Assembly (NCBI GenBank): GCA_016209155.1
Contig: JACQWU010000022.1
Location: 1-40,814 of the forward strand
DNA length: 40,814 bases
From: Candidatus Desantisbacteria bacterium
GTDB lineage: Bacteria; JACRDZ01
Direction of reading: 5' to 3'
Below the pieces are notes generated by a model that saw only the letters and a list, made by a program, of their open reading frames with translations, ran no database searches and was not told the origin of the DNA. Position numbers and translations under genes: made by a program. Shown here in pieces: positions 8,701 to 24,384 of the stretch. The stretch's first letter is position 1. Each line of letters begins with the position of its first letter.

Positions 8701-10581
8701 ATTGAGATTAATGCACTGACGAATGCTTTTAGAAAATACACAGATAAGAGGCACTTCTGTGCAATCGGATCAGTGAAAACCAATATCGGACATACAAATA
8801 TGGCTGCTGGGGTTGCCAGCTTGATCAAGGTACTCCTTTGTTTGAAACACAAGGAAATTCCATCCTTACTCAATTTTGAACGTGTAAACAAACATATTAA
8901 TTTTGAAGATAGCCCATTTTATGTGAATACTGAGCTTAAGGGTTGGGAAACAGAGAATGGAGTTCCAAGGTATGCTGCTGTCAGCTCATTTGGCTTTAGC
9001 GGAACGAATGCTCATTTAGTGGTCAGAGAGGCATGTGAACAAAAAATGAGGCAAAGAGTAAGCTCCTCAAGGTCTTGGCATCTTATTGTGCTTTCAGCGA
9101 AAACTGAAGAGTCTCTTAGACGCAAGTGGAAAGATCTTATAGAATGGCTTGAAAATGAGGAAGACGGTCACCTCATAGAAGATATTGCTGGAACATTACA
9201 GATTGGAAGAAGTCATTTCCAAATTCGTTTTGCAACAGTAGTAAGCAATGCAGGTGAGCTTAGGAAAAACCTTAGGGCTATTATAGAGGGCAGAGAGGCG
9301 AGCGATTATCTCACTGGGACACTCGACGAAGGACAAACTAAACTTGAGCCTTCGCTGAAACTGCTTGGAAAGAAACTGATTGATGATCTTGAAAATATTG
9401 GGATTCCTGAAATTGAATACAAAGATAAGCTTATGACCTTAGCAAATCTGTATATAAAGGGTTATGACATAGATTGGAATAGGATATATACTAATGGAAC
9501 ATGGCATCGTATTGCCCTACCAACCTATCCTTTTGCTGAAGAGCGATATTGGATACCGGAACAAAAGACTCCTAAAGCTGTAAATGATGGAAGACATCAT
9601 TTCACAAAACTGCATCCATTGATTGATGCAAATACATCTACCTTGGAAAAGCATGAATTTACCGTGCAGCTGAGAGGTAATGAATTTTATCTCGCAGACC
9701 ATATCATAGTAGGGAATAAAGTGCTGCCGGCAGTTGCCTATATAGAAATGGCACGCGCAGCAGGAGAGATAGCAGGTAAAAAGAGGGTGCGGTCCATTAG
9801 GAATCTTGTCTGGATGAAGCCCTTGATCATAGAAGATCAGCCTCAAGACGTGTGCGTGAGCTTGAATCTGAATGGTAAGGCGGTTGATTATAAGATAAGC
9901 AAGATTGAAGAAAATGGACGGAGTACATTGCATTCTCAGGGAACAATTGAATATGATGATAATGAAAACAACCTGTCTAATCCTAATGTAATTAATATTG
10001 AGACAATTAGAAAGAGATGTTGTGGATTAAAGAGTAGAGAGGATTTCTATAAAGAATTTCATAGTAAGGGGTTAAAGCTTGGACCTAGTTTTCAATCAAT
10101 TCAGGAACTATTGATCGGTGACACCGAAGTAGTATCCCGCATAAAGTTACCGGATAGTCTTGCAGAAGGAGCGCATGAGTTTATCTTGCATCCTGCATTA
10201 ATGGATGGAGCATTGCAGACAGTTTCAGGTCTGATAGGAAATGATGTGAGAGAGTGCTCTGAAACTGTTTATGTTCCATTTTCGATAGGAGAAGTTCATA
10301 TACATGGACATTTGGCAAAAGAGTGCTTTGCTTATGTAACCATGACGCCTGTGCAGTCTGTTACTGATTACAGCGTGTCTAAATTTGATATTTGGATAGT
10401 AAATGAAGAAGGATACGTATTGATACACTTAAAAGATCTCTCGGTTAGAGCGCTAGATAATACATCAAGGGCTTCAAAGGAAGCACGTGATGAGGAGATA
10501 ATAAGTTTATTGGAAATGCTTAGTAGTAGTAAATTGTGTGCTGATGATGTTGAGCAGCGTATTATGAAAGGGGATAAGTGA
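2758..10581 (+). CDS. trans-AT polyketide synthase, continuation of the same frame: (KS1 C-term)-DH-KR-cMT-ACP-KS2-DH
   Basis: Same reading frame as 1582-2757. Domains read from motifs, with approximate nt positions:
- KS1 C-terminal part, to ~3125 (HGTGTKLGDPIE, SNIGHTSAAAG, GTNAHIVIEEY)
- KS flanking subdomain, ~3170-3650 (LPTYPFACERYWVP)
- DH1, ~3688-4490 (HPLL, LADHIVNSQRILPGVAYLEM, HPALMDGALQ)
- KR1, ~4510-5800 (GGAGGIG near 5245, VLRD)
- C-MT1, ~6060-7135 (ILEVGAGTGGT, GANVLHAT)
- ACP1, ~7315-7545 (GVDSI, Ser codon 7420-7422)
- KS2, ~7765-9030 (Cys 8266-8268, AHGTGT, NIGH)
- flanking subdomain, ~9060-9560
- DH2, ~9610-10455
- helical C-terminal tail
There is no AT domain. Confidence 0.9.
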   Translation: MHGTGTKLGDPIELEALSTVFKERTHQKKFCAVGSVKSNIGHTSAAAGVASVQKVILCLKYKKLVPTLHFKNPNEHFNFDDSPFYVNTQLRPWEDRKGKLLRACVSSFGFSGTNAHIVIEEYRPRNDMAQTAMLISKDKPVLFVFSAKREQQLKIYAECMKNWIESNEDFNLSDMAYTLQMGREEMDYRLVFIADSREALLIKLKGFIENSHVAGFLTAQVKKSKDGVTIFETDEDAKSLLRTWMKKGKLKNIAELWVKGLNMDWEELYDDIKPRRISLPTYPFACERYWVPAIKAESSCGKAAYITAADIHPLLHRNTFDLSEQRFSSTFTGKEFFLADHIVNSQRILPGVAYLEMAYAALCRIKVGTVKGLSNVVWLRPLEVGENSVEVHIIINERYQYEIQSSDHEGQSRVHCQGELCLNDHEGGREQRLLIEEIKVRCTHRIDNQTLYERIRKFGIEHGPSMQGVCEVWVGKDEALAVLEVPHGREDVGYYTLHPALMDGALQSIAGLMDGSTTNNRSPRLPFSVESMEVLHPIKAQGYAYVKVSDKERFNIEITDKSGLVCLRVYNLALREMRDPFDSFFYVPTWKEAFQTVQTSRETKHVGRRIIIIYHEDSGGLERELAKAHAGDEVVMLKLGSKTVRHSEYHWEIEEKDPESLGRCVEQIEALHTVYHLGGIGDSEVILNDPKSLKRSQERGVISLFRLIKSLSRQGYYLRPLNLKVITNNVHQVIHDGDAIRPYGASLHGLVKSAAKEYPKWSLSCIDISLQDMHEKHLLAEAIIAEQGNPMGNEVAIRKGRRYVRVIEPILLPAVNQSPFKHEGVYLIIGGAGGIGLELSRHLAETVQAKLVLIGRSELKKKQKEKISLIESRGGQVLYLRADITDLESMRKAVKEAKVCFGRINGVIHSAIVLRDKTIENMDEEMFMEALNPKVKGSLVLRAAIESDKLDFMMFFSSVQSFIGAAGQGNYAAGCAFKDAFAQYLNATEPYPVKIINWGYWGSVGVVDSEEYNRRMAAKRISSIFPSEGMEAVRRVMGNRTNQVIPLKADRAVLKQLGVDLAYPLHLYPLEIPSVLDGALSQVRAPEMDSSILEQLPKAMDELERFGSLSLLDAFHRMGVFHRHDEKYEKEELKKKLKIISRYSRLFDALLRILERSGFITLKEKEVFITEDSAIIKVQDAVKEFEKKKNELALIHLELRAHLNLLSTCVKEYPRILTGDIPATDIMFPHTSMELVKGIYKGNLLVDFFNSLVVWSLRAYIQALIPNLGKDDKIKILEVGAGTGGTSAAIFDGIREYRERLQYLYTDISVAFTQYGEKHYGGENPYVEFRVLNIEDDPINQGYGAGEFDVVIGANVLHATKAIRTTLRNIKILLKTNGCLIINELTKNNNFATLTFGLLEGWWLFEDEENRLKGSPLLSPDLWERVLKEEGFERVHIVRQSNSSVQESGQSIVIAESNGIVKQLRSQAIPAERSISEPQRSRHSLSAPHVIVKGSCKPNQDATRSQDEEAQQKTDEEDIRHYAEEKIIECLIYALKIDRRHFDPITPFTEFGVDSILAVEIINQVNEKLGVTLRTTDLFNYSTIGMLSEYIAKEFGEILICKTTTHNKMPAEIRTEELFKTNSESSSIQRETQEGDNYAAASNIKGEGFRDCAQETTRHSSQTTHAEDSDIAIIGISGRFPGANDINEYWMNLKSGKNSIDELKRWKLNTFYDPDPQAPDKSYCKWGGMLEDIDKFDPLFFNISPKEAELMDPQQRLFLEEAWKALEDAGYSDRELEGKRCGVFVGSGAGDYTTILKERDISPDAYAFVGNSQSILAARISYFLNLKGPGIAIDTACSSSLVAIHLACESILSGTCELAITGGVTILTTSSFHIMASRAGMLSPDGQCKVFDHNANGFVPAEGVGAVVLKPLEQALRDGDHIYGVIVGSGINQDGRTNGITAPSGPSQTALECEVYNRYRIHPERITYIDAHGTGTKLGDPIEINALTNAFRKYTDKRHFCAIGSVKTNIGHTNMAAGVASLIKVLLCLKHKEIPSLLNFERVNKHINFEDSPFYVNTELKGWETENGVPRYAAVSSFGFSGTNAHLVVREACEQKMRQRVSSSRSWHLIVLSAKTEESLRRKWKDLIEWLENEEDGHLIEDIAGTLQIGRSHFQIRFATVVSNAGELRKNLRAIIEGREASDYLTGTLDEGQTKLEPSLKLLGKKLIDDLENIGIPEIEYKDKLMTLANLYIKGYDIDWNRIYTNGTWHRIALPTYPFAEERYWIPEQKTPKAVNDGRHHFTKLHPLIDANTSTLEKHEFTVQLRGNEFYLADHIIVGNKVLPAVAYIEMARAAGEIAGKKRVRSIRNLVWMKPLIIEDQPQDVCVSLNLNGKAVDYKISKIEENGRSTLHSQGTIEYDDNENNLSNPNVINIETIRKRCCGLKSREDFYKEFHSKGLKLGPSFQSIQELLIGDTEVVSRIKLPDSLAEGAHEFILHPALMDGALQTVSGLIGNDVRECSETVYVPFSIGEVHIHGHLAKECFAYVTMTPVQSVTDYSVSKFDIWIVNEEGYVLIHLKDLSVRALDNTSRASKEARDEEIISLLEMLSSSKLCADDVEQRIMKGDK

Positions 10582-13500
10582 GTAAACAAAGTTTAGACCT
10601 GAAAAAAATTCTTGAAATGGTGAAAAACAAACAAATAGCACCAAAAGAGGGATTTAAGTTAATCAAGCAGGTTCAACAGGGGATATCACAGGCAATAGAA
10701 GTTGCTGGTGATTTGGAGAACTCTGCTTCTCTCTATTATCAAATGCAATGGGAAAAGTCTGAAGCACCTGCAGAAAGTGAAAAAAAGAATCCATTGGCGA
10801 GTGTTTTGCTTTTTGCCACTGATGAGGGGGTATTTAAAACAATACAAAATCTAAAAGATTATGAAGGGAATGAATCATCAGTGATAATGGTTAAATATGG
10901 TGAATCTTATAGGGCTTTTGGTAAGCTGATATATGAAATTAATCCAGAAAGCCGTGAGGATTACTATCACCTCATCAAGGAACTGAGGAAAGAGGAATTG
11001 CTGCCGAGTAAAGTTATTTACCTCCGATCAGGAAAATCTTTATCCAATAATGAAGAAATCCTAATATCTCAGTTCAGGCAAGATGTATATCCAGTACTGT
11101 TTCTGAGCCAAGCAATTCTCGATGAGGGGATAAGAGATAAAATCAAATTTCTTTACATCTATTTATGTCAGAGCGATGAGCTGTACCCTCAGTATGCAGC
11201 AATGGGTGGATTTGCAAGGTCTGTTCACCTTGAGAACCAGAGGTTCTTTTTCAAGGTGATTGGTGTACGGAGTATGTCAAACTCCAATCAAATTGCCAAT
11301 ATAATAGCGTATGAATTTGAAACTGAAGATGCTGAGGCTGAGGTCTTATATGACGGAGATAACCGGTTAATAAGGCGTTGGAAGGAGATTGAAACAGAAA
11401 ATGACAAGGGAAAATCAGTACAATTGAGAGACAGGGGAGTGTATGTGATCACAGGCGGAACAGGCGGACTTGGACTGATCTTTGCTGAATATTTAGCCAA
11501 AAATGTGAGGCCGAGATTGGTGCTGGTAGGACGTTCCGAACTAACTGCGGACAAACAGAAAAGGATAAAAGATATAGAGGCATTGGGGGCTGACATAGAG
11601 TACATCAGGGCTGATGTATCCAAAAGAGAAGAGGTTGAAGAACTTATAGCCAAGATAAAGTCTCGCTTTATGGAAGTTCATGGCGTAATTCACGCTGCAG
11701 GAGTGATCAATGATTCTTTTGTAGTGAAGAAAACAAAGGAAGAGATGGATGAAGTCCTGTCTCCGAAGGTGTACGGAACAATCTGGTTAGATGAGTTGAC
11801 AAAAGAAGAGCCATTGGACTTTTTTATAACGTTTTCCTCAATAGCGGGGATAATAGGTAATATAGGGCAATGTGATTATGCATATGCAAACAGCTTTATG
11901 AACTATTATGCTGAAAAGAGGGCGGCATTAGGACGGCACGGCAAAACTCTTTCCATTATATGGCCATTGTGGAAAAAGGGGGGAATGAGAATTGATGAAC
12001 AGACAGAGAAATTATTGAGCGACACAATGGGAATAAGATTGATGGATCGAGAAACTGGACTGATGGCGATTGAAAAGGGGTTAAGATTGGGAGGAAGCCA
12101 TCTTATTCCCTTGGTAGGCGATACAGATAAAATAAGGCTTAGATTTGATAATATAGAAAGTCTGTCTTTATTAAAGACAGATGCCATGCAAACTTTGACG
12201 CAAACAGATGAGGTGAGTTTAACGAAAAATCTTCAAAAGGATATGTTGAGTCTCGTGTCGGATATTTTGAAGATCGATGAGAAAAGAATCAATCTTGATA
12301 GTAGCCTGACTAAGTTTGGATTTGACTCCATAACTTTTACAGAACTGGCAAATAAGATCAACGATAAGTATCACATTACCATTATGCCCACGGTGTTCTT
12401 TGAGCATTCATCTTTGAGATCAATAGTTTCATATTTGATCAAAGAACAAAGAGACAGTATGATTTATTACTACAAGAGCAAAATGAGCGTACCGATCAAT
12501 GCGTTAGCTGACAGTTTGATACAGAAAAAAGCTGATGAGAAGATAGCGGAGACGGAAACGATAGTCCGATCTCGGTATAATAAAAGTCACGAGGAGTTCA
12601 GAGAGCAAGGAAGGACGGCTATAAAAGATAATATAGCAATCGTTGGGATGAGTGGAGTAATGCCACAATCAGAGGATCTTGAGGAATTTTGGAGACATTT
12701 AGAGGAAGGTAGAGATATGATCACTCAAATTCCTATAGACCGGTGGGACTGGAAGGAATACTATGGCGACCCGATAACAGAGGCTAACAAGACCAACATA
12801 AAGTGGGGCGGATTCATGAAAGAGGTGGATAAATTTGATCCCCTGTTTTTTAATATCTCACCTTATGAAGCAGAACTGATGGATCCTCAAGAAAGAATTA
12901 TCATTGAATTGATATGGAAGACCATAGAGGATTCCGGATACAGGGCATTGGATTTCTCAGGTACAAAGACCGGACTTTTCATTGGGATATCTAGTGCAGA
13001 CTACCGAGAGTTAATGATAGAGCAACACATGTCAATGGGAGTAAGTCAATCAATAATAGCCAATCGAGTATCTTACTGCTTTAATTTTCGAGGTCCGAGT
13101 GAACCTGTGGATACAGCCTGCTCAAGCTCACTAGTCGCAATTCATCGTGCTGTAGAAGCGATCCAAAATGGCCATTGTGATACTGCGTTTGCAGGAGGGA
13201 TCAATGTTATTGCGAGTCCGAATTTGTATGTTGTGTTCAGCAGAATGGGTGCTCTCTCTGACAATGGCAAGTGTAAGACCTTTGACAAAAATGCGAACGG
13301 GTATGTCAGAGGAGAGGGAGCAGGGATTCTCATGCTCAAGTCTTTGAGCAGGGCTGAGGCAGATGGAGATTATATTTACGGCGTAATTAAGGGGACAGCG
13401 GTAAACCATGGAGGCCGTGCCAGCTTTTTTACCGCACCTAATCCCAATGCCCAGGCAGAGGTGCTGATAGAAGCTTATGAGAGAGCAGGAGTAGACCCTT

Positions 13501-16500
13501 CGACATTGAGTTACATAGAGACGCATGGAACAGGGACAAGTCTTGGGGATCCTATTGAAATTGAGGGTTTAAAGAAGGCATTCAAGGAGCTCTATAAGAG
13601 ATGTAATAAACCTATATCGAAAAAGGCGCACTGTGGATTAGGATCAGTAAAGACTAACATAGGTCATTTGGAAGCAGCATCAGGTGTGGCAGGTGTGATC
13701 AAGGTATTATTAGCTATGAAGCACCAGCGGCTCCCAGGATTGCTTAATTTTAAGGAGATGAATCCATATATTCAGTTAGAAGGCAGTCCTTTTTATATCA
13801 TAACCGAGTCAATGGCATGGGGTCGCTTAAGGGATGAAGAGAAAATGCCTATACCGCTTAGGGCAGGAGTGAGCTCTTTTGGCATGGGAGGGGTTAATGC
13901 TCACGTAGTGCTTGAGGAGTATAGGGACAATAATAAACAAATCATAGCAGAAAATAAGGAGACCCAGGTGTTTGTGCTATCGGCAAAGAATGAAAAGCAG
14001 TTGAAGGAGTATGCCGAGAAGATGGTAAAATTTTTTGACAGGGCATTTGATAAAAAAGAGGTTACCATTGCTAATATCGCCTATACGCTCCAGGTGGGCA
14101 GGGAGGCAATGGAAGAACGGCTTGCACTCATAGTGTCAAGCATACAGGATTTGAAAGAAAAGTTATCTCAATATGCTCAGGGAGCAGAGCATATTGAAAA
14201 TGTATATAGAGGAAATGTAAAAGCGAATAAGGGTATATCAGAACTTTTGGATGGAGGAGAGGAAGAGCATGCATTCATCAGGAGATTAATAGCTGTCAAA
14301 AGGATTAGCAAACTTGCGCAGATGTGGGTGTCAGGAGTAAATATCGAATGGAAGTTACTTCATGAATTGCAAACTACACGCCGTATCGCTCTACCGACTT
14401 ATCCATTTGCAAGAGAGAAGTGCTGGATACCAAAAATAGAACAAGCAGCTGTTATCGCAAGCAACAAACAAGTGCAAGTAACTGAAAGTAGTAACCTGAT
14501 ACATAATAACTATGTCAAAAATTTTGAGCAGGAACAGAGTATAATACCTCATCAAATAGTTAAAAATACGAATTTGGAGAATACAGAAGTACTATTTACT
14601 GCTACCTCAGAGTATTTTAAGAATGTATTTTCATCTGCATTAAAAATAGATTCGAAGATGATTGATATTGAAACAGATTTTCAGGAATATGGACTTGACT
14701 CAATTATGGTTAACCAGCTCAATAAAATCTTAGAAGGAAAGTTTGGCAAATTATCTCCAACATTGCTTTTCACACACAAGAATATAAAAACCTTAACCGG
14801 ATATTTTGTGAAGAACTACATTGAAAAATTGAGATATATCATTGGAGTGTCCCAGAATAATAATAAAGTTAATCTTACAACATCAAAACAGGAGAGACAA
14901 ATAGGAGAGGTCATCAAGGAGACAAGCAATAAGGATTCGTATAATGAAGAAATCGCAATCATCGGTCTAAGCGGGCAATTTCCCTTAGCCAGTAATGTAG
15001 ATGAGCTCTGGGAGAATTTAAAAGCAGGAAGAGATTGCATTACTGAGGTTCCCAAAGAGAGATGGGATTATAAAGAGTTTTATGATCCGGAAAAAAGGAA
15101 AATAGGGAAAACATGCTGCAAGTGGGGCGGATTCCTTAAAGAAGTGGACAAGTTCGATCCCGCTTTTTTCAATATAAATCCCGAAGAAGCTGTGATAATG
15201 GATCCGCAGGAGAGGTTGTTTTTACAAACCGTATGGGCATGCCTTGAGGACGCAGGATATACGCGTACAATGTTAAAAGATAATAATACAAAAGACATAG
15301 GTGCGGCTGTAGGGGTATTCGTAGGAGCGAGTTTTCATTCCTATCCGCTGCACGTTGCGGAACAATGGAAAAAAGGTGTATTAGTCCCATTACATACGCA
15401 AACATTTTCCATAGCAAATCGCATATCGTATTTCTTTAATCTCAGCGGTCCGAGCGTCTCAATGGACACTGCGTGTTCTTCATCGCTTTATGCCCTCCAT
15501 CTTGCCTGTGAAAGCATTAGAAGAGGAGAATGCAGGTTTGCAATAACCGGAGGAGTGAATCTTCCATTGCATCCCAGTCAATACATAACTCTATCTGCGG
15601 TAGGCATGCTTTCCGCTCAGGGTCATTGCCGATCATTTGGTGAAGGCGCGGATGGGATGGTTCCCGGAGAAGGTGTAGATGCAGTACTTCTGAAACCTCT
15701 TAAAGATGCAATAAGAGATCGAGATCATATCTATGCTGTAATTAAGGGAACTGCTGCAAATAATGACGGCAAAACCTATGGTTATACTACCCCGAATCCG
15801 ATTGCCCAGTCTGAAGTCATCAGGAAGGCCTTAACGAAATCGAATGTGGATACTAAAACAATAAGTTATATTGAGGCGCATGGAACCGGCATTGTCTTGA
15901 GCGATACGATAGAGATAGAAGCATTGAGCAACGCATACGAATCTTATTCAAAAGAGAGGAACTATCGCGCGATCGGATCCATAAAATCCAATATTGGCCA
16001 CATAGAAGCACCGGGTGGAATAGCTGGCTTAATTAAAGTGCTGCTACAGATGAAATATAAACTATTAGTACCTTCGATTCATTCTGAAAAATTGAACTCA
16101 CATATAAATTTTGAGAACACACCTTTTTATGTTCAACAGAAACTGGAAGAATGGAAACAACCGGTTATAGAGGAAAATGGAAAAGTTAAAATATATCCGA
16201 GACGCGCAGGCCTGAGTTCGTTCGGCGCAGGTGGAGTAAACGTACATATTATAGTAGAAGAGTATCCTTCTTTTGGCGCAGACCATAGTTGCACGGGCAA
16301 GGATAATCTAATTCCTTCAGCTTCATCACTAATTAATGCTGTAATGAATGAGGTAAGGCCATTATTGATTCAGTCGTTTAATAAAATCGACATAAACCTC
16401 TATGAAAAAGGATATAAGGATTTGAATAAGTGGACCCGTCTTTTGCTGTTAAACGCTTTCCAAAATATGGGCCTATTTAATAAATCCGAAGAAAGATATC

Positions 16501-18014
16501 AAAGACGTGAATTGGTGGAGAGGCTGAATATTCTAGTAAAGTACCGGCAACTGTTCGATGGTCTCCTTACTATATTAACGCAAGGCAGATTTCTTAAAAA
16601 AGACGGTGATGTTATAGCGTGCACCTCAAGAGTAGAAAGTGAGGAAACAAAGAAGCATCTTATGAATTTGGAACATACCAAGGAAGATCTAATACAAAAA
16701 TATCCATTATTAAAATCATACTTGTCTCTGCTCTGGATATGCATAAGCAATTATCCGGATATCCTGACCGGGAAAAAATTGGCAACAACTGTTATGTTTC
16801 CTAACTCTTCTATGGAATTGGTGGAAGGTATATATAAAGCTTTCAGCAAAGAATTTTCAATGGTCGCAAAATGCATAGGTTCATATGTTAAAAGGCGATG
16901 TGCGGAGTTGGGCGAGGGGGAAAAGATAAACATTCTCGAAATAGGAGCAGGAACAGGGGGAACCACGGTTTCAGTATTGGAAGCAATAGAAGAATATAGT
17001 GATAAAATACGGTATGTCTATACGGATGTATCAATAGGCTTTTTGTTTCATGGAGAGAATTTGTACGGTAAAAAATATGATTTTATGGAATTTAAATTAT
17101 TAGACATTGAAAAGAGTGCATTTGAACAGGGCATTAAGCAAGCCGAATATGACATTATTATCGGTGCTAATGTTTTCCATGCAACCAAAAAAATGGATAA
17201 CACATTACTGAATGTAAAAGAGTTGCTGAAGACAAATGGGCTATTGATTATGGAGGAAACAACTTCCAAAGTAGACTTTTTATTATTGACATTCGGCTTA
17301 TTAGATGGATGGTGGCTATATGAAGATAAAGAAAACCGTATTGAGGAATCTCCACTACTCAATATAGATAGTTGGAAGAGGTTGTTAGAAAAAATTAATT
17401 TTCAGAATGTTGGCTTTTTAGGTTATCAAGGCTCGATGCAACATATGATAGTGGCAGAAAATAGCTGTGTTCAGAGAATAGAATATCCTCTTTGTGAGTT
17501 TAAGGCACTAAACCATATAATCCTGCCCATATCAGCAATGAATAAGCAAAGCCTCTACTCTAATGCCAAACAGCTGAAGGATTTTTTGCGAAAGAACAAA
17601 GAACAAAGAAACTTTATATTGCTACTTGAGGATATTGCTTATACTTTGCAAGTTGGGAGAGAGCCTATGCGGCACAGGCTGGCCTTTACTGGCAAGACTC
17701 ATGATGAAATAATCGAGAAAATAGATATGTATCTTAATACTCCCCTCAAGAAAGTTGATATGTTTGAATTAAATAATGTTTCTCTGGACGAAATTGATTT
17801 AAAAGAAAAGACCTTTATTGGTAAAAAGGTTGATGCAGAGCAAATGAATAACCTTATTCAGCAAGGGGCAATGGACAAGTTGGCTGATCTATGGGTACAA
17901 GGAATGGAGGTTGATTGGAACTCACTTTACATGGGATACAAACCATCACGTGTCTCATTGCCTACTTATTCCTTTCTCAAGGAACGATATTGGGTATCTG
18001 ATAAAAATGGTTAA
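10578..18014 (+). CDS. trans-AT polyketide synthase: KR-ACP-KS3-ACP-KS4-cMT-(KS flanking subdomain); no AT, no terminal ACP, no TE
   Basis: GTG 10578 overlaps the upstream TGA (GTGA). The N-terminus is a docking-like helix (LDLKKILEMVKNKQIAPKEG). Domains, with approximate nt positions:
- KR2, ~10730-11990 (GGTGGLG near 11454)
- ACP2, ~12230-12440 (GFDSI, Ser 12327-12329)
- KS3, ~12630-13925 (Cys 13119-13121, THGTGT, NIGH)
- flanking subdomain, ~13960-14430 (LPTYPFAREKCWIP)
- ACP3, ~14600-14820 (GLDSI, Ser 14700-14702)
- KS4, ~14947-16265 (Cys 15474-15476, AHGTGIVLSD, NIGH)
- C-MT2, ~16330-17465 (ILEIGAGTGGT, GANVFHAT)
- flanking-type subdomain, ~17500-18000 (EDIAYTLQVGREPMRHRLAF ... LPTYSFLKERYWVS). 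Confidence 0.9.
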   Translation: MSKQSLDLKKILEMVKNKQIAPKEGFKLIKQVQQGISQAIEVAGDLENSASLYYQMQWEKSEAPAESEKKNPLASVLLFATDEGVFKTIQNLKDYEGNESSVIMVKYGESYRAFGKLIYEINPESREDYYHLIKELRKEELLPSKVIYLRSGKSLSNNEEILISQFRQDVYPVLFLSQAILDEGIRDKIKFLYIYLCQSDELYPQYAAMGGFARSVHLENQRFFFKVIGVRSMSNSNQIANIIAYEFETEDAEAEVLYDGDNRLIRRWKEIETENDKGKSVQLRDRGVYVITGGTGGLGLIFAEYLAKNVRPRLVLVGRSELTADKQKRIKDIEALGADIEYIRADVSKREEVEELIAKIKSRFMEVHGVIHAAGVINDSFVVKKTKEEMDEVLSPKVYGTIWLDELTKEEPLDFFITFSSIAGIIGNIGQCDYAYANSFMNYYAEKRAALGRHGKTLSIIWPLWKKGGMRIDEQTEKLLSDTMGIRLMDRETGLMAIEKGLRLGGSHLIPLVGDTDKIRLRFDNIESLSLLKTDAMQTLTQTDEVSLTKNLQKDMLSLVSDILKIDEKRINLDSSLTKFGFDSITFTELANKINDKYHITIMPTVFFEHSSLRSIVSYLIKEQRDSMIYYYKSKMSVPINALADSLIQKKADEKIAETETIVRSRYNKSHEEFREQGRTAIKDNIAIVGMSGVMPQSEDLEEFWRHLEEGRDMITQIPIDRWDWKEYYGDPITEANKTNIKWGGFMKEVDKFDPLFFNISPYEAELMDPQERIIIELIWKTIEDSGYRALDFSGTKTGLFIGISSADYRELMIEQHMSMGVSQSIIANRVSYCFNFRGPSEPVDTACSSSLVAIHRAVEAIQNGHCDTAFAGGINVIASPNLYVVFSRMGALSDNGKCKTFDKNANGYVRGEGAGILMLKSLSRAEADGDYIYGVIKGTAVNHGGRASFFTAPNPNAQAEVLIEAYERAGVDPSTLSYIETHGTGTSLGDPIEIEGLKKAFKELYKRCNKPISKKAHCGLGSVKTNIGHLEAASGVAGVIKVLLAMKHQRLPGLLNFKEMNPYIQLEGSPFYIITESMAWGRLRDEEKMPIPLRAGVSSFGMGGVNAHVVLEEYRDNNKQIIAENKETQVFVLSAKNEKQLKEYAEKMVKFFDRAFDKKEVTIANIAYTLQVGREAMEERLALIVSSIQDLKEKLSQYAQGAEHIENVYRGNVKANKGISELLDGGEEEHAFIRRLIAVKRISKLAQMWVSGVNIEWKLLHELQTTRRIALPTYPFAREKCWIPKIEQAAVIASNKQVQVTESSNLIHNNYVKNFEQEQSIIPHQIVKNTNLENTEVLFTATSEYFKNVFSSALKIDSKMIDIETDFQEYGLDSIMVNQLNKILEGKFGKLSPTLLFTHKNIKTLTGYFVKNYIEKLRYIIGVSQNNNKVNLTTSKQERQIGEVIKETSNKDSYNEEIAIIGLSGQFPLASNVDELWENLKAGRDCITEVPKERWDYKEFYDPEKRKIGKTCCKWGGFLKEVDKFDPAFFNINPEEAVIMDPQERLFLQTVWACLEDAGYTRTMLKDNNTKDIGAAVGVFVGASFHSYPLHVAEQWKKGVLVPLHTQTFSIANRISYFFNLSGPSVSMDTACSSSLYALHLACESIRRGECRFAITGGVNLPLHPSQYITLSAVGMLSAQGHCRSFGEGADGMVPGEGVDAVLLKPLKDAIRDRDHIYAVIKGTAANNDGKTYGYTTPNPIAQSEVIRKALTKSNVDTKTISYIEAHGTGIVLSDTIEIEALSNAYESYSKERNYRAIGSIKSNIGHIEAPGGIAGLIKVLLQMKYKLLVPSIHSEKLNSHINFENTPFYVQQKLEEWKQPVIEENGKVKIYPRRAGLSSFGAGGVNVHIIVEEYPSFGADHSCTGKDNLIPSASSLINAVMNEVRPLLIQSFNKIDINLYEKGYKDLNKWTRLLLLNAFQNMGLFNKSEERYQRRELVERLNILVKYRQLFDGLLTILTQGRFLKKDGDVIACTSRVESEETKKHLMNLEHTKEDLIQKYPLLKSYLSLLWICISNYPDILTGKKLATTVMFPNSSMELVEGIYKAFSKEFSMVAKCIGSYVKRRCAELGEGEKINILEIGAGTGGTTVSVLEAIEEYSDKIRYVYTDVSIGFLFHGENLYGKKYDFMEFKLLDIEKSAFEQGIKQAEYDIIIGANVFHATKKMDNTLLNVKELLKTNGLLIMEETTSKVDFLLLTFGLLDGWWLYEDKENRIEESPLLNIDSWKRLLEKINFQNVGFLGYQGSMQHMIVAENSCVQRIEYPLCEFKALNHIILPISAMNKQSLYSNAKQLKDFLRKNKEQRNFILLLEDIAYTLQVGREPMRHRLAFTGKTHDEIIEKIDMYLNTPLKKVDMFELNNVSLDEIDLKEKTFIGKKVDAEQMNNLIQQGAMDKLADLWVQGMEVDWNSLYMGYKPSRVSLPTYSFLKERYWVSDKNG

Positions 18015-18047
18015 ATAATTATTTTAACTGTATATAAAGGAGGGCTT

Positions 18048-19589
18048 ATGACTCAATGGTGCGGAAATTTTACAGAGTATGTTTGGCGTCTTTTAAATGA
18101 AAAAAAAATGTTAACCAACAAAGCATTCCAATTTTCTGAAAGAATAATAACGTATGAAGAACTTTTTGAGAATGTAAATAAAGCTGGTAACCTCTTAAAG
18201 GGAAAAGGGATAAAACCTGGAGATCGTGTTATGCTGATAATGCAGGACTCTGTCTCTCTTGTAAATGCTTTCCTTGGGGCAATCCGAATAGGTGCAATTC
18301 CTATTGTGCTTAATACTATGCTTTTCTCTAAAGATTATCCTTATTACTTTTCAGATAGTCAGGCTCGTTTATGCATTATTGATGAAGATTTTTTAGAAAA
18401 AATTGATGAATGCAAAAACCAGTGCCCTGTTATAAATACAGGTGAATTCGACAGGCTGACAGCAAAACAACCTGCATACACTGAGTTTTATAATTGCGAT
18501 CTTAAAACTCCTGCATTCTGGCAATATTCATCAGGAACCACTGGAAAGCCAAAGGCCGTTATTCATACACATTTCGGACCTGTTGAAATTTATAATACAT
18601 ATGCAACAGAGATTCTAAGCATTTCATCCACTGACAAGGTGCTTAGCACAGCACGAATGTTTTTCGGATATGGTCTTGGAGGCAGCCTCTTTTTCCCTAT
18701 TATGGCAGGCGCTATGACAATATTGTTCTCCGGTCGCATAAATCCCGAAAATTTTATTAAGGTTATTAATAGTTATAAGCCAACAATTTTTTTCTCAGTC
18801 CCATCGTTTTACAAGCAATTGTTGGATTATGAAGGGGGTGCTTATTCTCTGAATACATCGTCTCTTAGACTGGCAATATCAGCCGGAGAATCATTGCCAT
18901 CAGTAATATATTATAGATGGTTTGAGCGTACCGGTGTTGAACTGCTCGACGGCATTGGTACAACGGAAGCGCTTCATATTTTTATGTCAAATCGAGCGGG
19001 TGAAGTCAAACCCGGGAGTTGTGGTAAGCCGCTTAAGGGTGTTCAAGTTAAGCTTGTAGATGAGTCAGAAAATATCATACCAGGGTGCAAGCTGGGAAGG
19101 CTTCTTATCCATCACCCCGGAATCGCTGTTGGTTATTATAACCAGCAGGAGCTGAACTCAAAAGTATTTAGAGATGGGTGGCTAGATACCGGCGACATTT
19201 TCCGTGTAGATCAAGAAGGCCATTTTTGGCATATGGGCCGGTTTAATGATATGTTCAAAGTAAAGGCTATGTGGGTATCACCGATAGAAGTTGAAGAGGT
19301 ACTGTTACGTCATAAAATGATCTCTGATTGTGCAGTTGTCGGTGTTCCAAATAAACAAGGATTAACGGAAATTGTAGCATATATCGTGTTAAAAGATGGT
19401 ATAAAGCCAGAAGATTTTGTTGCAAATTCACAAATTCATAATCATTGTGAAGATATATTGGCGAGATATAAGATCCCCACAAGCTACAATTTTATAGAAA
19501 CAATCCCAAAAACTGCAACTGGCAAGAAAAAACGCTATGAGCTTCGGGAGAAATTTATTGAAACTTCATTGGGGAGGAATGAAATATGA
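18048..19589 (+). CDS. AMP-dependent aryl-acid:CoA ligase, benzoate-CoA ligase (BadA/BclA)-like
   Basis: AAGGAGGG at 18037-18044 precedes ATG 18048. Adenylate-forming motifs are present (WQYSSGTTGKPKAVIHTH, FFGYGLGGSLFFP, DGIGTTEALHIFMSNRAGEVKPGSCGKP, GDIFRVDQEGHFWHMGRFNDMFKV, PKTATGKKKR). The pattern matches my recollection of the benzoate/4-hydroxybenzoate-CoA ligase subfamily. Confidence 0.8.
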   Translation: MTQWCGNFTEYVWRLLNEKKMLTNKAFQFSERIITYEELFENVNKAGNLLKGKGIKPGDRVMLIMQDSVSLVNAFLGAIRIGAIPIVLNTMLFSKDYPYYFSDSQARLCIIDEDFLEKIDECKNQCPVINTGEFDRLTAKQPAYTEFYNCDLKTPAFWQYSSGTTGKPKAVIHTHFGPVEIYNTYATEILSISSTDKVLSTARMFFGYGLGGSLFFPIMAGAMTILFSGRINPENFIKVINSYKPTIFFSVPSFYKQLLDYEGGAYSLNTSSLRLAISAGESLPSVIYYRWFERTGVELLDGIGTTEALHIFMSNRAGEVKPGSCGKPLKGVQVKLVDESENIIPGCKLGRLLIHHPGIAVGYYNQQELNSKVFRDGWLDTGDIFRVDQEGHFWHMGRFNDMFKVKAMWVSPIEVEEVLLRHKMISDCAVVGVPNKQGLTEIVAYIVLKDGIKPEDFVANSQIHNHCEDILARYKIPTSYNFIETIPKTATGKKKRYELREKFIETSLGRNEI

Positions 19590-20623
19590 AAGTCACGCAC
19601 ATATTTACATATAACGAAGGTCCCTGGTACTCGGCTTTGGAAGCGATGCATCTTTTGGGACAAAATAATATAATTACTGAAAAGGCTCTCAAAGCAACCG
19701 AATATGAAAAGCGCAGATTATTTGCCATAAATGACATTAAAAAAACACCACTTGATGACGCTACATTTTTTCATATTCTTACTAAAAGCTTTTTAACTAT
19801 GGCAAAATCTTTGGTTGATCAATATCTAAAATGGAAAGGCAATAATAAAAATATTAAATCCATTACTATTATAAACAGCCAGGGAATACCAAAACCTGGC
19901 TATGATGAAATGCTGAAAGAATTAATGAATATAAATAACATCCCAATTTATCATATCACGGGAATGAATTGCGCAAGTACTATTCTTGCCTTACAGCATT
20001 TGCATCATTTACGTAAAAAAGACCCTTTACGAAAAGAAGAAATCGATTTAATTTTTTCAATTGAGGTACCATCTATCATGATGCGCCTCAAAAGATCTAT
20101 ACTACAAATGCCTTATGTTCACTATGATGGAGTTGTATCCGATGGTGCCGGATTGGTTGTAATTGAATCTTCAGAAAGTAGCTTAGGTCTGGAAATTGTC
20201 GGACATCGTAATTTTCTCTATCCCAAAGCTCAAGAGAACTTAATGTCAAGAGCAATAGGGAATCAAGTAGAACATGGGCTAACCACAGAATCTATTGAAG
20301 ATATAAGACATGTCATCAAGGATGCTATCAATTATACCTTGTCAGATCTTAATCTGAATATGGAAAAGATCAATCACTGGATTTTACATCCTGGAGGAGT
20401 AAAAGTCATTAATACAGTATCTAAGGAACTCGGTTTAAAAGATGAGACTATGAAATATGCTCTTGATACTATACGCAGCCAAGGGAATTCCATGAGCAAT
20501 TTGATTCTCTATGTGTTGCAAAAATATTTCGAATCGAATACCTTTAGCAATAAAGATATTGCAATGCTAATCGGGATCGCTCCTGGTTTTGAAATTCAAA
20601 CGGTGACAGTACGCTATTGTTAA
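19586..20623 (+). CDS. Type III polyketide synthase-like (chalcone/stilbene synthase fold) condensing enzyme, divergent
   Basis: ATG 19586 overlaps the ligase stop (ATGA), and GGGGAGG at 19571-19577 serves as RBS. A Cys-His-Asn triad sits in CHS-like contexts: GMNCAST (Cys codon 19970-19972), WILHPGGVKVI (His 20387-20389) and QGNSMSNLILYVL (Asn 20486-20488). The HPGG context points to type III PKS rather than FabH, which has HQAN. Confidence 0.7.
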   Translation: MKVTHIFTYNEGPWYSALEAMHLLGQNNIITEKALKATEYEKRRLFAINDIKKTPLDDATFFHILTKSFLTMAKSLVDQYLKWKGNNKNIKSITIINSQGIPKPGYDEMLKELMNINNIPIYHITGMNCASTILALQHLHHLRKKDPLRKEEIDLIFSIEVPSIMMRLKRSILQMPYVHYDGVVSDGAGLVVIESSESSLGLEIVGHRNFLYPKAQENLMSRAIGNQVEHGLTTESIEDIRHVIKDAINYTLSDLNLNMEKINHWILHPGGVKVINTVSKELGLKDETMKYALDTIRSQGNSMSNLILYVLQKYFESNTFSNKDIAMLIGIAPGFEIQTVTVRYC

Positions 20624-20639
20624 GGAAAGGGGGTGAATT

Positions 20640-21056
20640 ATGAATAATTTAAGTATTATTTGGTCCGCAGATTTTGATATCCGGAAAGGTTATCAAAAAA
20701 ATAAAGAACACGAACATATTGTATCGTTTATTCATGATCAATTGGTAAAACATGCTATTGAACTGAAAAAAATTGGTTTTCTGGGCATATTGTATGGCAT
20801 GAATCATGTGAGTGTTCGTGTTCCGTCCTTAACAGAACTAGCGTTTGGGCGTCTTTATAAAAAACACAAAGACAGGTATTTGTGTATATCTCTTCAACGA
20901 TTGTATTTAGTTGATGATTATCAGACTGGAATTGATAAATTAGCTGATGCTTTTCGTGCATTCGAAGCTAATTTGGGAATTATTTGTTGGTATGGAGAGG
21001 ATAAATTCGAAATTATGCTCGTCTCTTCTTCTGCCAATGATCTGTCTAAATCATAA
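20640..21056 (+). CDS. Hypothetical 138-aa protein, no recognisable motif, in the same operon as the type III PKS-like gene
   Basis: AAGGGGG lies 6-12 nt before ATG 20640, which is 16 nt after the previous stop on the same strand. I recognise no family. Confidence 0.5.
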   Translation: MNNLSIIWSADFDIRKGYQKNKEHEHIVSFIHDQLVKHAIELKKIGFLGILYGMNHVSVRVPSLTELAFGRLYKKHKDRYLCISLQRLYLVDDYQTGIDKLADAFRAFEANLGIICWYGEDKFEIMLVSSSANDLSKS

Positions 21057-21109: not shown

Positions 21110-21799
21110 ATGATAGAATTAAAAGAAGTGAGTAAGACGTATACACAAGGTATAAAAAATATACCTGTTCTTCACAATATTTCGATTAGCATCAAGTTGG
21201 GTGAATTTGTCTCTATTATGGGTCCCAGCGGATCCGGCAAAAGCACACTTCTGAATCTCATCGGTGGAATCGACCAGCCTACATCTGGAGAGATATTTAT
21301 TAATAGCAAACCGCTTCATGGGATTAAGGATGATGAACTCACTTTAATCAGACGCAAACATGTGGGATATATTTTTCAGTTTTTTAACCTTCTTCCCATT
21401 CTTTCAGCTATGGAAAATGTTGGTCTTCCGCTTCTCCTCGAAGGTATACCTTTATCAAAAATAAAATCAAAGGTAGAAACGCTATTGCAAAAAGTTGGAT
21501 TGGAAGGCCGTATGGAACATCGGCCCGAGCAGCTTTCAGGAGGAGAAATGCAGCGTGTAGCGATAGCGCGCTCTCTAATTACAGATCCCGAAGTACTCCT
21601 TGCGGACGAACCAACAGGTAATTTGGATTCGCGTTCAAGTGAAGAGATATTCAATATGCTTAAAAAACTAAATGCCGAAGGCCAAACTATTATAATGGTA
21701 ACACATGATTCTAAAGCTGCTGATTGCGGTACACGGCTTATCACGATCAAAGACGGATTTCTGGCTTCCGATAAAAAGCTAAAGGAGGTTAGGGCATGA
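21110..21799 (+). CDS. ABC transporter ATP-binding protein, LolD/MacB-type
   Basis: Walker A is GPSGSGKST, the signature is LSGGEMQRVAIAR, and Walker B is LLADEPTGNLD, followed by the H-loop VTHD. The FNLLP...ENV motif is typical of the LolD/MacB clade. Confidence 0.9.
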   Translation: MIELKEVSKTYTQGIKNIPVLHNISISIKLGEFVSIMGPSGSGKSTLLNLIGGIDQPTSGEIFINSKPLHGIKDDELTLIRRKHVGYIFQFFNLLPILSAMENVGLPLLLEGIPLSKIKSKVETLLQKVGLEGRMEHRPEQLSGGEMQRVAIARSLITDPEVLLADEPTGNLDSRSSEEIFNMLKKLNAEGQTIIMVTHDSKAADCGTRLITIKDGFLASDKKLKEVRA

Positions 21800-24384
21800 G
21801 TATTTTAAATTTTTTTCGTTACATTAGCCTTAGACATATACGATTTCAAAAAACACAATCGATTGTTGTTTTGCTCAGTATCTGTCTAGGTATTGCAACA
21901 ATAGTCTCAATAACCATTGTAAATAGAAGCGTTCTATATTCATATGAAGATACATTTAATAAAATGTTGGGCCGCTCCAGTTTACAGATCTCAGGTCCCG
22001 AAACAGGATTTCCCGAGAATCTTGTAGATAAGGTTTTGAAAGTTCCCGGAGTGGAATATGCTGCACCAGTAATCGAAACTCAGGGGATACTTATCGGAGC
22101 AAAAGAACATTCTATTATGATCCTGGGTGTGGATGTGCTTCAGGATAATCAAATTCGAGATTACAGCATTTCAGGTGAAAGCGCGGATATACCAGATCCT
22201 CTTTTATTCCTCGCAAAACCTGGTTCTATTCTAATACCGCGCAGTTTGGCAGAATCTGAAAAAATAGAAATAGATCAGGATGTGCAGATACAAACAGTCT
22301 ACGGTATACAGAAATTTCGTGTTCGCGGACTTCTTAACCCGGAGGGACCTGCAAAGGCAGTGGGTGGTAACATAGCAGTAATGGACATCTTTGCGGCACA
22401 AATGGCTTTTGGAAAAGAAGCCCGTATCGATCGAATTGATATCGGTCTGTATCGTGGGACTGATATAGAAGAAGTGCAACACCATTTAGAGAAAACTATT
22501 CCTCAGGGATATAAAATTACGACTCCGGCAGGCAGGACTAAGCAGGTACAAAAAATTCTTTCCAGCATGCAGAGCAATATAGATCTTATCGGTTATATTT
22601 CGATCATTGTTGGCATGTATCTTATTTACAATGCAGTTTCAATCACTGTTGTACGCCGTAAAAAAGAAATAGGTATACTCCGTGCTCTTGGGGCTACGCG
22701 AAGTCAAATCATAAAAACATTTCTCGGAGAGCACATTATAATTGCTACTGTAGCCTCAGCATTAGGTGTAGCATTGGGGATTCTTTTTGCAAAAGCCGCG
22801 GTCGGCGCTGTTGGAGAGATTATATCCAGTATGTACATGAGGACATCAGTCTCTGAAATCAAAATCTATTGGGCTGATATTTTCTCAGGTTTTGCAGCTG
22901 GAATTCTTGCAACCCTGATTGCATCATTGATTCCTGCATTTTCAACCGCCAATATAACACCAATTTTAGCTATACGATCAGTTCCATATTCGGAAGAGAA
23001 AATGCTTACTGCCAGAACTGTCAGGATGGTGTCTATATTACTCGTATTTCTCTCTATAGTTCTTCTAATCTTCTATAAAGCTACAAAATTTTTTCCTGTA
23101 TTTCACAATAAAAGTATAATATTTTTATCCGTTACTGCGATACTGGTTGGAATTTCACTCTCAACGACCGATTTTCTCAGATGGGTACTTACTTTTTTTC
23201 AGCGTTTCATTTTACCCTTGTTTAGCGGTTCTCCCAGACTTGCCGGCCTAAATTTGCAGAAAAATATCTCCCGGAATGCTGTAGCCGTAGCTGCTGTGTT
23301 TTACAGTATTGCAATATTTGTGAGCTCAGCAGGCTTTATGTATAGCATTAAAGAATCTATACTCTCGTATACTGATTCCGTTGTGCGAGGTGATATCCTT
23401 GTAACTTCAGGACATCCACTTTCTGTAGGTTCTCAGAATATTCCTATGCCAGTTGAGTTAGGAAAAGAAATAGAGAAAATTCCCGGAGTGCTATCAGCAG
23501 ATCCCTTTCGCAAAACATATATTGACTATAGCGGTAAACGGGTTGTTCTTTTGACCGTGGATGTAGCACGAAGACTTGAATACAGTCCGTTTATGTTTGC
23601 CCAGGGAACACATGACGAGATGGTAAAACTTCTGCCACACAACGATGCTGCAGTAGTAAGCGAAGGTTTTGCTTCACATTTTAATGTCGTACCAGGAGAT
23701 ACAATTACTTTGTCAACACCGCAAGGTCCGGTACCCTTCCATGTAGTTGCAATAATTGTTGATTATATGTCAGATGTGGGGTCTGTGCTGGTAGATATCG
23801 ATACATATCAGCGCCATTGGGGTGATATGCTTGCAGAGACCTTTTCAGTGCGTGTGAAACCAGGGGAGAGCATAAATACTGTACAAGAAGCTATTATGAA
23901 GAAATTCGGAGCTAATCGAAAATTATTTGTTCTCTCAGGTCGTGAATTTAAGGAAGAGAGCCGTAAGTTAATCGATCAGACCTTTATCATGCACTATGCA
24001 GTAAACATCATAAGCATGATTATTGCTTGCTTTGGTATTATTGTTGCTCTGCTTGCATCAGTGCTCGAACGAACACGTGAGATAGGAATCCTGCGTTCTA
24101 TAGGTATGCTGCGCTCCCAAGTATCTCGAGTGGTAATGCTTGAATCAGTGATCCTGGGCATTAGTGGAGGGGTGCTTGGCTCTCTCACAGGAGTTCTTCT
24201 GGGATGGATAAGCCTGGATGGTTTTTATCGGGTAGATTACGGTGCAAGCATTGCTTATTACATACCTTATATGTATGTCATCTGGGCTATAATAATCTCG
24301 GCAGGGCTTGCAACACTTGCAGGACTCTATCCAGCACACCGAGCTGCGAAAACAAATATTGTGGAGGCATTGAACTATGAATAA
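21796..24384 (+). CDS. ABC transporter permease with two FtsX/MacB-type domains (862 aa)
   Basis: ATG 21796 overlaps the ATPase stop (ATGA). Two copies of the FtsX-type block (RRKKEIGILRALGATRSQI and ERTREIGILRSIGMLRSQV) are each followed by hydrophobic helices, with large soluble loops between them. Confidence 0.85.
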   Translation: MSILNFFRYISLRHIRFQKTQSIVVLLSICLGIATIVSITIVNRSVLYSYEDTFNKMLGRSSLQISGPETGFPENLVDKVLKVPGVEYAAPVIETQGILIGAKEHSIMILGVDVLQDNQIRDYSISGESADIPDPLLFLAKPGSILIPRSLAESEKIEIDQDVQIQTVYGIQKFRVRGLLNPEGPAKAVGGNIAVMDIFAAQMAFGKEARIDRIDIGLYRGTDIEEVQHHLEKTIPQGYKITTPAGRTKQVQKILSSMQSNIDLIGYISIIVGMYLIYNAVSITVVRRKKEIGILRALGATRSQIIKTFLGEHIIIATVASALGVALGILFAKAAVGAVGEIISSMYMRTSVSEIKIYWADIFSGFAAGILATLIASLIPAFSTANITPILAIRSVPYSEEKMLTARTVRMVSILLVFLSIVLLIFYKATKFFPVFHNKSIIFLSVTAILVGISLSTTDFLRWVLTFFQRFILPLFSGSPRLAGLNLQKNISRNAVAVAAVFYSIAIFVSSAGFMYSIKESILSYTDSVVRGDILVTSGHPLSVGSQNIPMPVELGKEIEKIPGVLSADPFRKTYIDYSGKRVVLLTVDVARRLEYSPFMFAQGTHDEMVKLLPHNDAAVVSEGFASHFNVVPGDTITLSTPQGPVPFHVVAIIVDYMSDVGSVLVDIDTYQRHWGDMLAETFSVRVKPGESINTVQEAIMKKFGANRKLFVLSGREFKEESRKLIDQTFIMHYAVNIISMIIACFGIIVALLASVLERTREIGILRSIGMLRSQVSRVVMLESVILGISGGVLGSLTGVLLGWISLDGFYRVDYGASIAYYIPYMYVIWAIIISAGLATLAGLYPAHRAAKTNIVEALNYE

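Follow-up and report, generated by a model that had tools for sequence, protein, structure and literature searches.

The window analysed here is one entire contig of 40,814 bp from an uncultured bacterium (Candidatus Desantisbacteria; JACQWU010000022.1), which carries the 3' part of a trans-acyltransferase (trans-AT) polyketide synthase (PKS) cluster, all on the + strand. The second large PKS protein of this cluster, PKS-C, closes with a ketosynthase (KS4) whose core is separated from its flanking subdomain (FSD) by a C-methyltransferase (MT): an MT of ~380 aa, together with two flexible linkers, is inserted into the ~17-residue KS4-FSD loop after NVHIIVEEY. On sequence grounds, the resulting KS-MT-FSD order is the product of neither chance nor misassembly, as it recurs in an independent homolog, P0001, while a further relative, L146, shows the corresponding empty site. 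The order is real but very rare. We consider it reasonably probable that PKS-C ends in a rare variant of the trans-AT PKS elongation module, with the MT accommodated in the KS-FSD loop, and that this is a split module whose partner and chain-releasing module are located outside the contig.

Insertion of a methyltransferase between KS4 and its flank

The elements of the module, and the acyl carrier protein (ACP2) preceding it, are as follows.

14598-14852, + strand: ACP2 (aa 1341-1425), the carrier taken to deliver the chain to KS4; ACP profile match at aa 1337-1414 (i-E 9e-24), Pfam PP-binding in two stretches
14946-16268, + strand: KS4 core (aa 1457-1897); Pfam ketoacyl-synt at aa 1457-1711, Ketoacyl-synt_C, and motifs
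16272-16325, + strand: linker 1 (aa 1899-1916), predicted to be disordered, entry of the insertion; AlphaFold2 (AF2) predicted local distance difference test (pLDDT) score <50 at model residues 459-476; the alignment with L146 ends at aa 1913
16329-17462, + strand: complete C-methyltransferase (aa 1918-2295), consisting of an N-terminal helical lid and a class I Rossmann core; Pfam HTH_51, Methyltransf_12 and Methyltransf_23; confident in the AF2 model
17466-17507, + strand: linker 2 (aa 2297-2310), predicted to be disordered, exit of the insertion; pLDDT <50 at model residues 857-870
17514-18011, + strand: complete FSD (aa 2313-2478); RhiE-like_linker, CurL-like_PKS_C, full-length alignment to the flanks of KS1-KS3 and P0001, Foldseek
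18012-18014, + strand: TAA stop codon of PKS-C, 6 codons past LPTYxFx5W

The original prediction, made without database searches, had placed an MT between the KS4 core and its flank, and this arrangement is borne out by alignment, by the order of the Pfam matches, by a structure model and by both relatives. The KS4 core closes with GVNVHIIVEEY (aa 1886-1896, nt 16233-16265). The spacing from EEY to strand 1 of the FSD amounts to 12-20 residues in KS1-KS3 and to ~415 residues in KS4 (MAFFT). Strand 1 of the KS4 flank (HIILPISAM, aa 2313-2321, nt 17514-17540) is followed by helix 1 and IAYTLQVGRE (aa 2353-2362), and the FSD ends with LPTYSFLKERYW (aa 2461-2472, nt 17958-17993). In a MAFFT alignment, aa 2310-2478 (169 residues) align over their full length with the flanks of KS1-KS3. 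The KS4 flank is 28-31% identical to these three (E 1e-18 to 5e-27) and 40% identical to the FSD of P0001. Consistently, the Pfam matches within aa 1860-2478 run from a truncated KAsynt_C_assoc (profile positions 22-72 of 111) through the MT models to RhiE-like_linker (PF22336), the latter scoring 65 bits against a cut-off of 27. Given the full-length alignment and the 65-bit match, positions 17500-18000 are homologous to the KS flank. Both the reading frame and the base composition, which is smooth, continue unbroken through the KS4-MT-FSD region.

The inserted MT carries the S-adenosylmethionine (SAM) motif LEIGAGTGG (aa 2120-2128) and ANVFHAT (aa 2197-2203). The SAM motif, the His of ANVFHAT and the Glu of LLIMEET align with those of 10 other PKS MTs and are all kept. 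The domain matches the DisA MT (PDB 6cca) with an E-value of 5.8e-78 and is 42% identical, over the domain, to MT1 of the same cluster; the lead-ins of the two MTs align, as had been predicted. A post-MT stretch, RIEYP, was considered as a possible vestige of a deleted second KS end. This was rejected, as a C(I/V)(R/Q)(I/R)IE tail also closes the canonical MT of P0172.

An AF2 model of aa 1441-2478, based on an alignment of 19 natural rows, reached a mean pLDDT of 84.4 and a predicted template modelling (TM) score of 0.66, with KS, MT (model residues 478-855) and FSD all confident. The two low-confidence linkers, at model residues 459-476 and 857-870, exactly bracket the MT, and helices predicted at model residues 478-668 make up its N-terminal lid, with the HTH_51 match. 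When the model was compared to the PDB using Foldseek, KS and FSD aligned over ~1020-1038 columns, from the N-terminus of the KS to the C-terminus of the FSD, with 4z37, 7zma, 4na1/2/3, 5erb and 5e5n, the MT appearing as a gap. The TM-scores of these superpositions were 0.89-0.93 (normalised to target length) at a root-mean-square deviation of 3.8-4.9 A; matches of the KS core only scored 0.71-0.75. The structures matched in this way are crystal structures of trans-AT KS-FSD units, and the two halves of the split unit are thus predicted to come together in the canonical manner while the MT loops out as an excursion. Structure prediction had been proposed as a check on the original prediction, and the model, in which the MT forms an excursion from the KS-FSD unit, agrees with it.

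The Cys-His-His triad of KS4 is complete, consisting of Cys1633 (within DTACSSS, nt 15465-15497), His1768 and His1808 (NIGH motif). The loop starting at His1768, HGTGIVLSD (aa 1768-1776, nt 15879-15905), departs from the canonical HGTGTxLGDP, reading HGTGIVLSDT. Of 454 His-bearing KS motifs, 450 have Thr at the position next to HGTG and none has Ile, and 439 contain GDP. The combination of an intact triad and an unusual HGTGIVLSD had been noted previously; motif location and the comparison with the 454 motifs confirm it. By analogy with FabF and FabB, the HGTGT loop would touch the phosphopantetheine/malonyl arm, which makes an altered handling of the ACP by KS4 possible. General decay of KS4 was also considered and is unsupported: 519 KSs share 46 columns with a conservation of 95% or more, and at these KS4 deviates once, as does KS2, and KS3 not at all.

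Relatives, rarity and other embedded domains

P0001 is a 900-aa protein, its N-terminus cut by a contig end, encoded in a metagenome-assembled genome (MAG; GCA_029935795.1) in a different cluster context. Its domain order is KS-MT-FSD-ACP, with 41-46% identity to PKS-C over both junctions. Its FSD is the best non-self match of the KS4 flank among hundreds of FSDs, and the MTs of both proteins have in common a deletion of 3-4 residues in the YKGNxxxDYFN region. In the corresponding locus, L001, the KS-MT-FSD-ACP gene is followed by a nuclease-like gene and then by one encoding a KS-FSD-AT-DH-ACP protein (DH, dehydratase). A search for the same order elsewhere, which had been suggested along with the original prediction, was thus successful.

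The closest relative of KS4 and its FSD is P0110 in locus L146 (ENA ERZ25039513 contig_17994), which presents an empty site. This locus is colinear with aa 1183-1913 of PKS-C (48% identity) and, from the very next nucleotide on, with aa 2314-2473. It reads GGVNVHIIVEEY, identical to KS4, followed by 17 residues and then by VVIVLSAK, which is strand 1 of the FSD. Given this direct passage from aa 1913 to aa 2314, the MT and its two linkers (aa ~1914-2313) behave as a cleanly inserted segment of the loop from KS to FSD. Past the equivalent FSD, L146 continues with an ACP and then with a KS-AT-DH-ACP-TE module (TE, thioesterase). The trans-AT line of L146 finishes with a cis-AT-type module, and the last module of L001 is similar. 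L146 is broken into many small open reading frames (ORFs), probably as a result of frameshift errors in a noisy assembly.

A profile search was carried out against 1.84 billion representative proteins. Among the best 150 matches (cut-off about 610 bits), full-length colinearity within a single match was restricted to the window protein and P0001. The KS-MT-FSD order was encountered in none of the 66 loci from a scan of one genome per GTDB species and in none of the 78 loci from a scan of JGI metagenomes; the canonical KS-FSD-MT-ACP order was seen in all 66 genome loci and in almost every metagenome locus that was examined. As pattern matching and rank restrict what these scans can return, the two KS-MT-FSD cases are a lower bound. 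Six loci of the genome scan that seemed to cover query residues 15-619 in full (L023, L026, L028, L034, L036 and L038) were discarded as normal KS-FSD-MT modules of which separate high-scoring segment pairs had been merged. Likewise, MT matches of P0009 and of the L008 type, reaching ~query residue 543, seemed to extend into the FSD, but this proved to be a spurious low-identity extension into linker and ACP. The searchable literature (subscription journals were outside reach, and a prior description is possible) yielded no account of an MT or ACP placed within or before an FSD, in line with the original prediction, in which the KS-MT-flank order was not known to have been described.

A second kind of embedded MT, designated type B, has the order KS - FSD strand 1/helix 1 - MT - remainder of the FSD (AYTLQxGR to LPTYPF). 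It was present in 4 of 273 other proteins examined and in one metagenome locus, L120, at the following sites.

P0145, aa 2439-3032: type B MT
P0169, aa 2350-2932: type B MT
P0172, aa 1034-1620: type B MT
P0223, aa 2168-2738: type B MT
L120, 9719-11728: type B MT

The type B insertion point is located ~40 residues beyond the KS4-type site, past helix 1 of the FSD. In P0145, P0169 and P0172 the type B module additionally contains a second, canonical MT, in the arrangement KS-(MT)-KR-MT-ACP(-ACP) (KR, ketoreductase). When 280 MT domains were ranked by identity, the embedded MTs of the window, P0001 and type B formed no exclusive clade; their similarity in sequence does not establish a single origin. 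In a beta-alpha unit, strand 1 begins and helix 1 ends at the same edge of the sheet, so that at both insertion points the MT may protrude from one and the same FSD face.

The type B site is also occupied in an upstream KS of P0145, P0169 and L120. In P0145 (aa ~1110-1205) and P0169 (aa ~1100-1190), the FSD of that KS contains an ACP-like insert of ~80 aa without the usual GxDS serine (FGIGALEFE and GLGLHEIDS). Inserts of ~135-170 aa are found at the same site in L120 (4779-5284) and L075 (5368-5774).

The end of PKS-C, its gene cluster and competing explanations

The contig starts within the gene for 3-hydroxy-3-methylglutaryl (HMG)-CoA synthase and encodes the following proteins in and around the PKS cluster.

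18-755, + strand: HMG-CoA synthase, truncated by the contig start
757-1524, + strand: enoyl-CoA hydratase
1555-2757, + strand: N-terminal part of KS1, closed by an in-frame TAG
2758-10581, + strand: first large PKS protein, KS1 C-part-FSD-DH-KR-MT1-ACP-KS2-FSD-DH
10578-18014, + strand: second large PKS protein (PKS-C, 2478 aa), KR-ACP-KS3-FSD-ACP2-KS4-MT-FSD
18048-19589, + strand: benzoate-CoA-ligase-family enzyme
19586-20623, + strand: type III PKS-like enzyme
20640-21056, + strand: 138-aa protein, no family match
21110-26598, + strand: MacB-type ATP-binding cassette (ABC) exporter, LolA-like protein and weak DUF1302-like protein
26650-27630 and 27657-28514, + strand: two free-standing acyltransferases (326 and 285 aa; Pfam Acyl_transf_1)

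The cluster is a trans-AT system, with free-standing ATs and no AT inside the megasynthase. Pfam detects no AT domain (PF00698) in either large PKS protein, and its four RhiE-like_linker/CurL-like matches across these proteins mark AT-less flanking subdomains after the KSs. The second free-standing AT matches FabD (TIGR00128) with 335 bits, the other with 98 bits. The module spanning both large PKS proteins is split between DH and KR, at 10578-10581. In translations inspected by eye, the beta-branching signature, a Trp six residues after the Ser, is absent from the three ACPs of the window.

PKS-C ends 6 residues after LPTYxFx5W, a motif known as the exchange-unit boundary of trans-AT PKSs (PMC11260071). 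Its TAA stop is followed, after 33 nt, by an ATG at 18048 with AAGGAGGG as a strong ribosome-binding site ahead of it, so that the stop, binding site and start at 18012-18048 resemble a normal operon junction. Additional in-frame stops are present between the TAA and this ATG. No TE domain was detected in PKS-C using Pfam, and a screen of all six frames of the 40.8-kb contig with an ACP profile yielded no ACP beyond the three integrated ones upstream. A stand-alone ACP or an ACP-first PKS gene on the contig, the presence of which had been proposed as a check, was not found in any of these frames.

The gene after PKS-C is not a PKS, as had been stated before: it encodes the benzoate-CoA-ligase-type enzyme. 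Together with the type III PKS-like enzyme, in which the Cys/His/Asn motifs are present, and the 138-aa protein, this AMP-ligase forms a trio (18048-21056) that is conserved as a cassette at 48-55% identity (L147-L151). Three of the five loci examined have type II/aryl-polyene-like PKS genes beside the trio and one has a B12-binding enzyme. These PKS genes include ApeI-like genes, pairs of KS and chain length factor, and free ACPs; in the window, the trio adjoins a trans-AT PKS. Because the trio recurs beside unrelated PKS systems, it looks like a cassette that supplies a starter unit or other precursor, here accompanied by export genes, and not like a termination device. The MacB-type exporter, composed of an ATPase and an FtsX permease, is located inside the PKS cluster. 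With the LolA-like and DUF1302-like proteins (the latter match scoring 22.8 bits, just below the 23.2-bit cut-off), it suggests export or anchoring of a lipid-like product at a diderm cell envelope.

The core of KS1 is interrupted by a lone in-frame TAG (2755-2757) between ISYT and MHGTGTKLGDP, at the position of the conserved Glu before HGTGT. An ATG follows directly at 2758, with no ribosome-binding site before it. When both parts are joined, the TAG position is the sole deviation of KS1 at the 46 conserved columns. The TAG is likely to stem from a nonsense mutation of recent date or from an error in sequencing; that KS1 is truly split is less likely. Recoding or read-through of TAG was discarded as an explanation for the KS1 split or for the end of PKS-C, since TAG terminates 8 ordinary genes and is thus a normal stop here, and PKS-C ends with TAA. 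In the region 28843-30158, a DDE transposase ORF (29379-30158) directly follows a truncated ORF for an ABC ATPase (177 aa), which looks like disruption by an insertion sequence at the cluster edge. A phosphopantetheinyl transferase gene (30489-31031) follows the transposase.

RecA of the window (36534-37571) reaches no more than 74% identity with any member of a collection of 5.8 billion protein sequences, and its best matches are scattered over Clostridia, Thermincola and Geobacteraceae, indicating that the source organism is phylogenetically isolated, without close relatives. In a protein cluster look-up, the window proteins were singletons.

The termination of PKS-C at the LPTYxFx5W boundary points to a split module, a kind of split for which the cluster already has an example in its DH|KR junction. 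Since the contig is truncated in the HMG-CoA synthase gene and both relatives continue with an ACP and then KS-AT-DH-ACP, the ACP and TE partner is most likely encoded off the contig. The description of the terminal module as lacking ACP and TE therefore holds for the protein and for the contig, but not as an anomaly. In the favoured split-module explanation, KS4 would accept a beta-keto chain from ACP2 and condense it with malonyl-ACP. The embedded MT would then alpha-methylate the new beta-ketoacyl-ACP, by analogy with the MT of an ordinary KS-FSD-MT-ACP module. The acceptor ACP, which is present in cis in P0001, would here be supplied by another polypeptide, and this partner, together with the chain-releasing module, would most likely be encoded beyond the truncated contig.

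Several points weigh against this explanation. The ACP partner of KS4 is not demonstrable, there being none in any frame of the 40.8-kb contig. The phosphopantetheine/malonyl-binding loop of KS4 is highly atypical, with an Ile found in none of the 454 motifs and SDT for GDP, and condensation activity could be altered or lost as a consequence. With 6 residues after the YW, PKS-C has no recognisable C-terminal docking tail. The activity and substrate of the MT, as well as where it sits with respect to the active site of the KS, are deductions, and natural alignment rows in which KS and FSD are contiguous contributed to the KS-FSD packing of the model. Finally, the in-frame TAG in KS1 and the transposase beside the truncated ABC gene amount to damage of the cluster.

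Such damage is what would be expected if the cluster were a decaying dead end, in which the ACP and the releasing module have been lost, KS4 is inactive, and the KS-MT-FSD order is inherited but non-functional. We regard this as unlikely. It would account for the departure of KS4 (HGTG-I-VL-SDT) from the nearly invariant Thr (450/454) and GDP (439/454), for the TAG at the conserved Glu of KS1 with an ATG lacking a ribosome-binding site behind it, for the DDE transposase abutting the truncated ABC ATPase gene, and for the unrelated gene 33 nt past the stop, in place of the ACP that directly follows the FSD in P0001 and L146. On the other hand, ~5,000 PKS codons are open but for that single TAG, for which, in a MAG contig, an error in sequencing is a possible cause. 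Deviations at conserved columns are limited to 1 of 46 in both KS4 and KS2, to the stop-codon position in KS1 and to none in KS3, the catalytic motifs of the MT are intact, and the junction at 18012-18048 is like that of a normal operon.

Less probable still, and in our judgement doubtful, is a true ACP-less terminus. KS4 would pass the chain back to ACP2 or to a free-standing ACP, the MT would methylate it there, and a 3,5-diketo thioester would leave with no TE involved, through spontaneous formation of a pyrone, for instance, or through the action of the acyl-hydrolase-like AT. In support of this, the consecutive non-reducing modules KS3-FSD-ACP2 and KS4 would give a lactonisation-prone polyketo end, and pyrone release after two keto extensions was reported for engineered trans-AT lines (PMC11260071). 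Moreover, no ACP, TE or docking tail is found past the FSD, and one of the two ATs is a poor FabD match (98 vs 335 bits), as with proofreading acyl hydrolases. The route is pure inference, however; the homologs have an ACP in cis and then a further module, TE-ended in L146, and the contig is truncated upstream. Both the decaying cluster and the terminus reusing ACP2 are less well supported than the split module. Equally doubtful is a broader proposal, according to which the KS-FSD loop and the loop after FSD helix 1 are natural permissive sites for spliced domains (an MT, or elsewhere a Ser-less ACP-like domain), and KS-MT-FSD is here a self-sufficient terminus, with pass-back to ACP2 and TE-less release of a methylated polyketo chain.

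That misjoined repetitive PKS modules created the KS-MT-FSD order is very improbable: PKS modules are indeed repetitive and often misassembled, and the evidence from the window is a single 40.8-kb contig of a genome without close relatives, but the order recurs, with homologous junctions at either end of the MT, in P0001, which comes from an independent assembly. In addition, the reading frame runs on without a break, the base composition is smooth, and the MT, sharing just 42% identity with MT1, offers no repeat for recombination.

Comparison with known systems and implications

All parts of the module belong to known families (trans-AT KS, FSD and PKS C-MT) and the chemistry is presumably ordinary; it is the topology that is unusual. 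A canonical KS-FSD-MT-ACP module, such as that of the gem-dimethylating DisA MT of disorazole (6cca), consists of the same four blocks and has an MT of the same family. The window MT is 35-49% identical to canonical MTs, and the presumed chemistry, alpha-methylation of the beta-ketoacyl-ACP of the preceding KS, is the same. In contrast to the canonical module, however, MT and FSD are swapped, so that the MT splits the KS-FSD unit instead of following LPTYPFx5W, and no ACP comes after. Compared to contiguous KS-FSD units of known structure (4z37, 7zma, 4na1, 5erb), KS and FSD of the window are canonical in sequence and in predicted packing and end at the exchange boundary, the difference being a ~400-aa domain a few residues after the NAHVILEE-equivalent motif.

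Type B modules likewise have an MT of the same family, with the same motifs, inside the KS-FSD unit and ahead of LPTYPF, differing in their later insertion point. A further parallel is provided by the KS-LD-AT (LD, linker domain) of cis-AT PKSs and fatty acid synthases, where a catalytic domain is also inserted in the linker/flanking fold and the LPTYPF post-linker returns to the KS. There, the AT has a later insertion point, past the AYTLQ region but ahead of LPTYPF (as seen in L077, L141 and L143), and both the domain and its function are different. Split trans-AT modules that end after KS-FSD, with DH, KR or ACP on the next protein, resemble PKS-C in ending after the FSD; PKS-C differs in that its partner is absent from the contig and that it has no visible docking tail.

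Parsers of domain order that list KS, MT, KR and ACP without the FSD would not register the KS-MT-FSD arrangement. For the structural biology of these enzymes, it raises the question of where an MT that is anchored in the KS-FSD unit by both of its termini comes to lie with respect to the KS. KS and FSD co-evolve, with LPTYPFx5W as exchange boundary, and engineered fusions at NAHVILEE failed (PMC11260071). Engineering of trans-AT PKSs currently treats KS and FSD as an inseparable co-evolving block and LPTYPFx5W as the only good cut site. In the window, a 400-residue domain follows the NAHVILEE-equivalent motif, and this is backed by the empty site of L146 (48% identity) and by a second, independent example. 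The KS4-FSD loop is therefore a candidate permissive site for the insertion of a domain beside a KS, for which nature provides a precedent.

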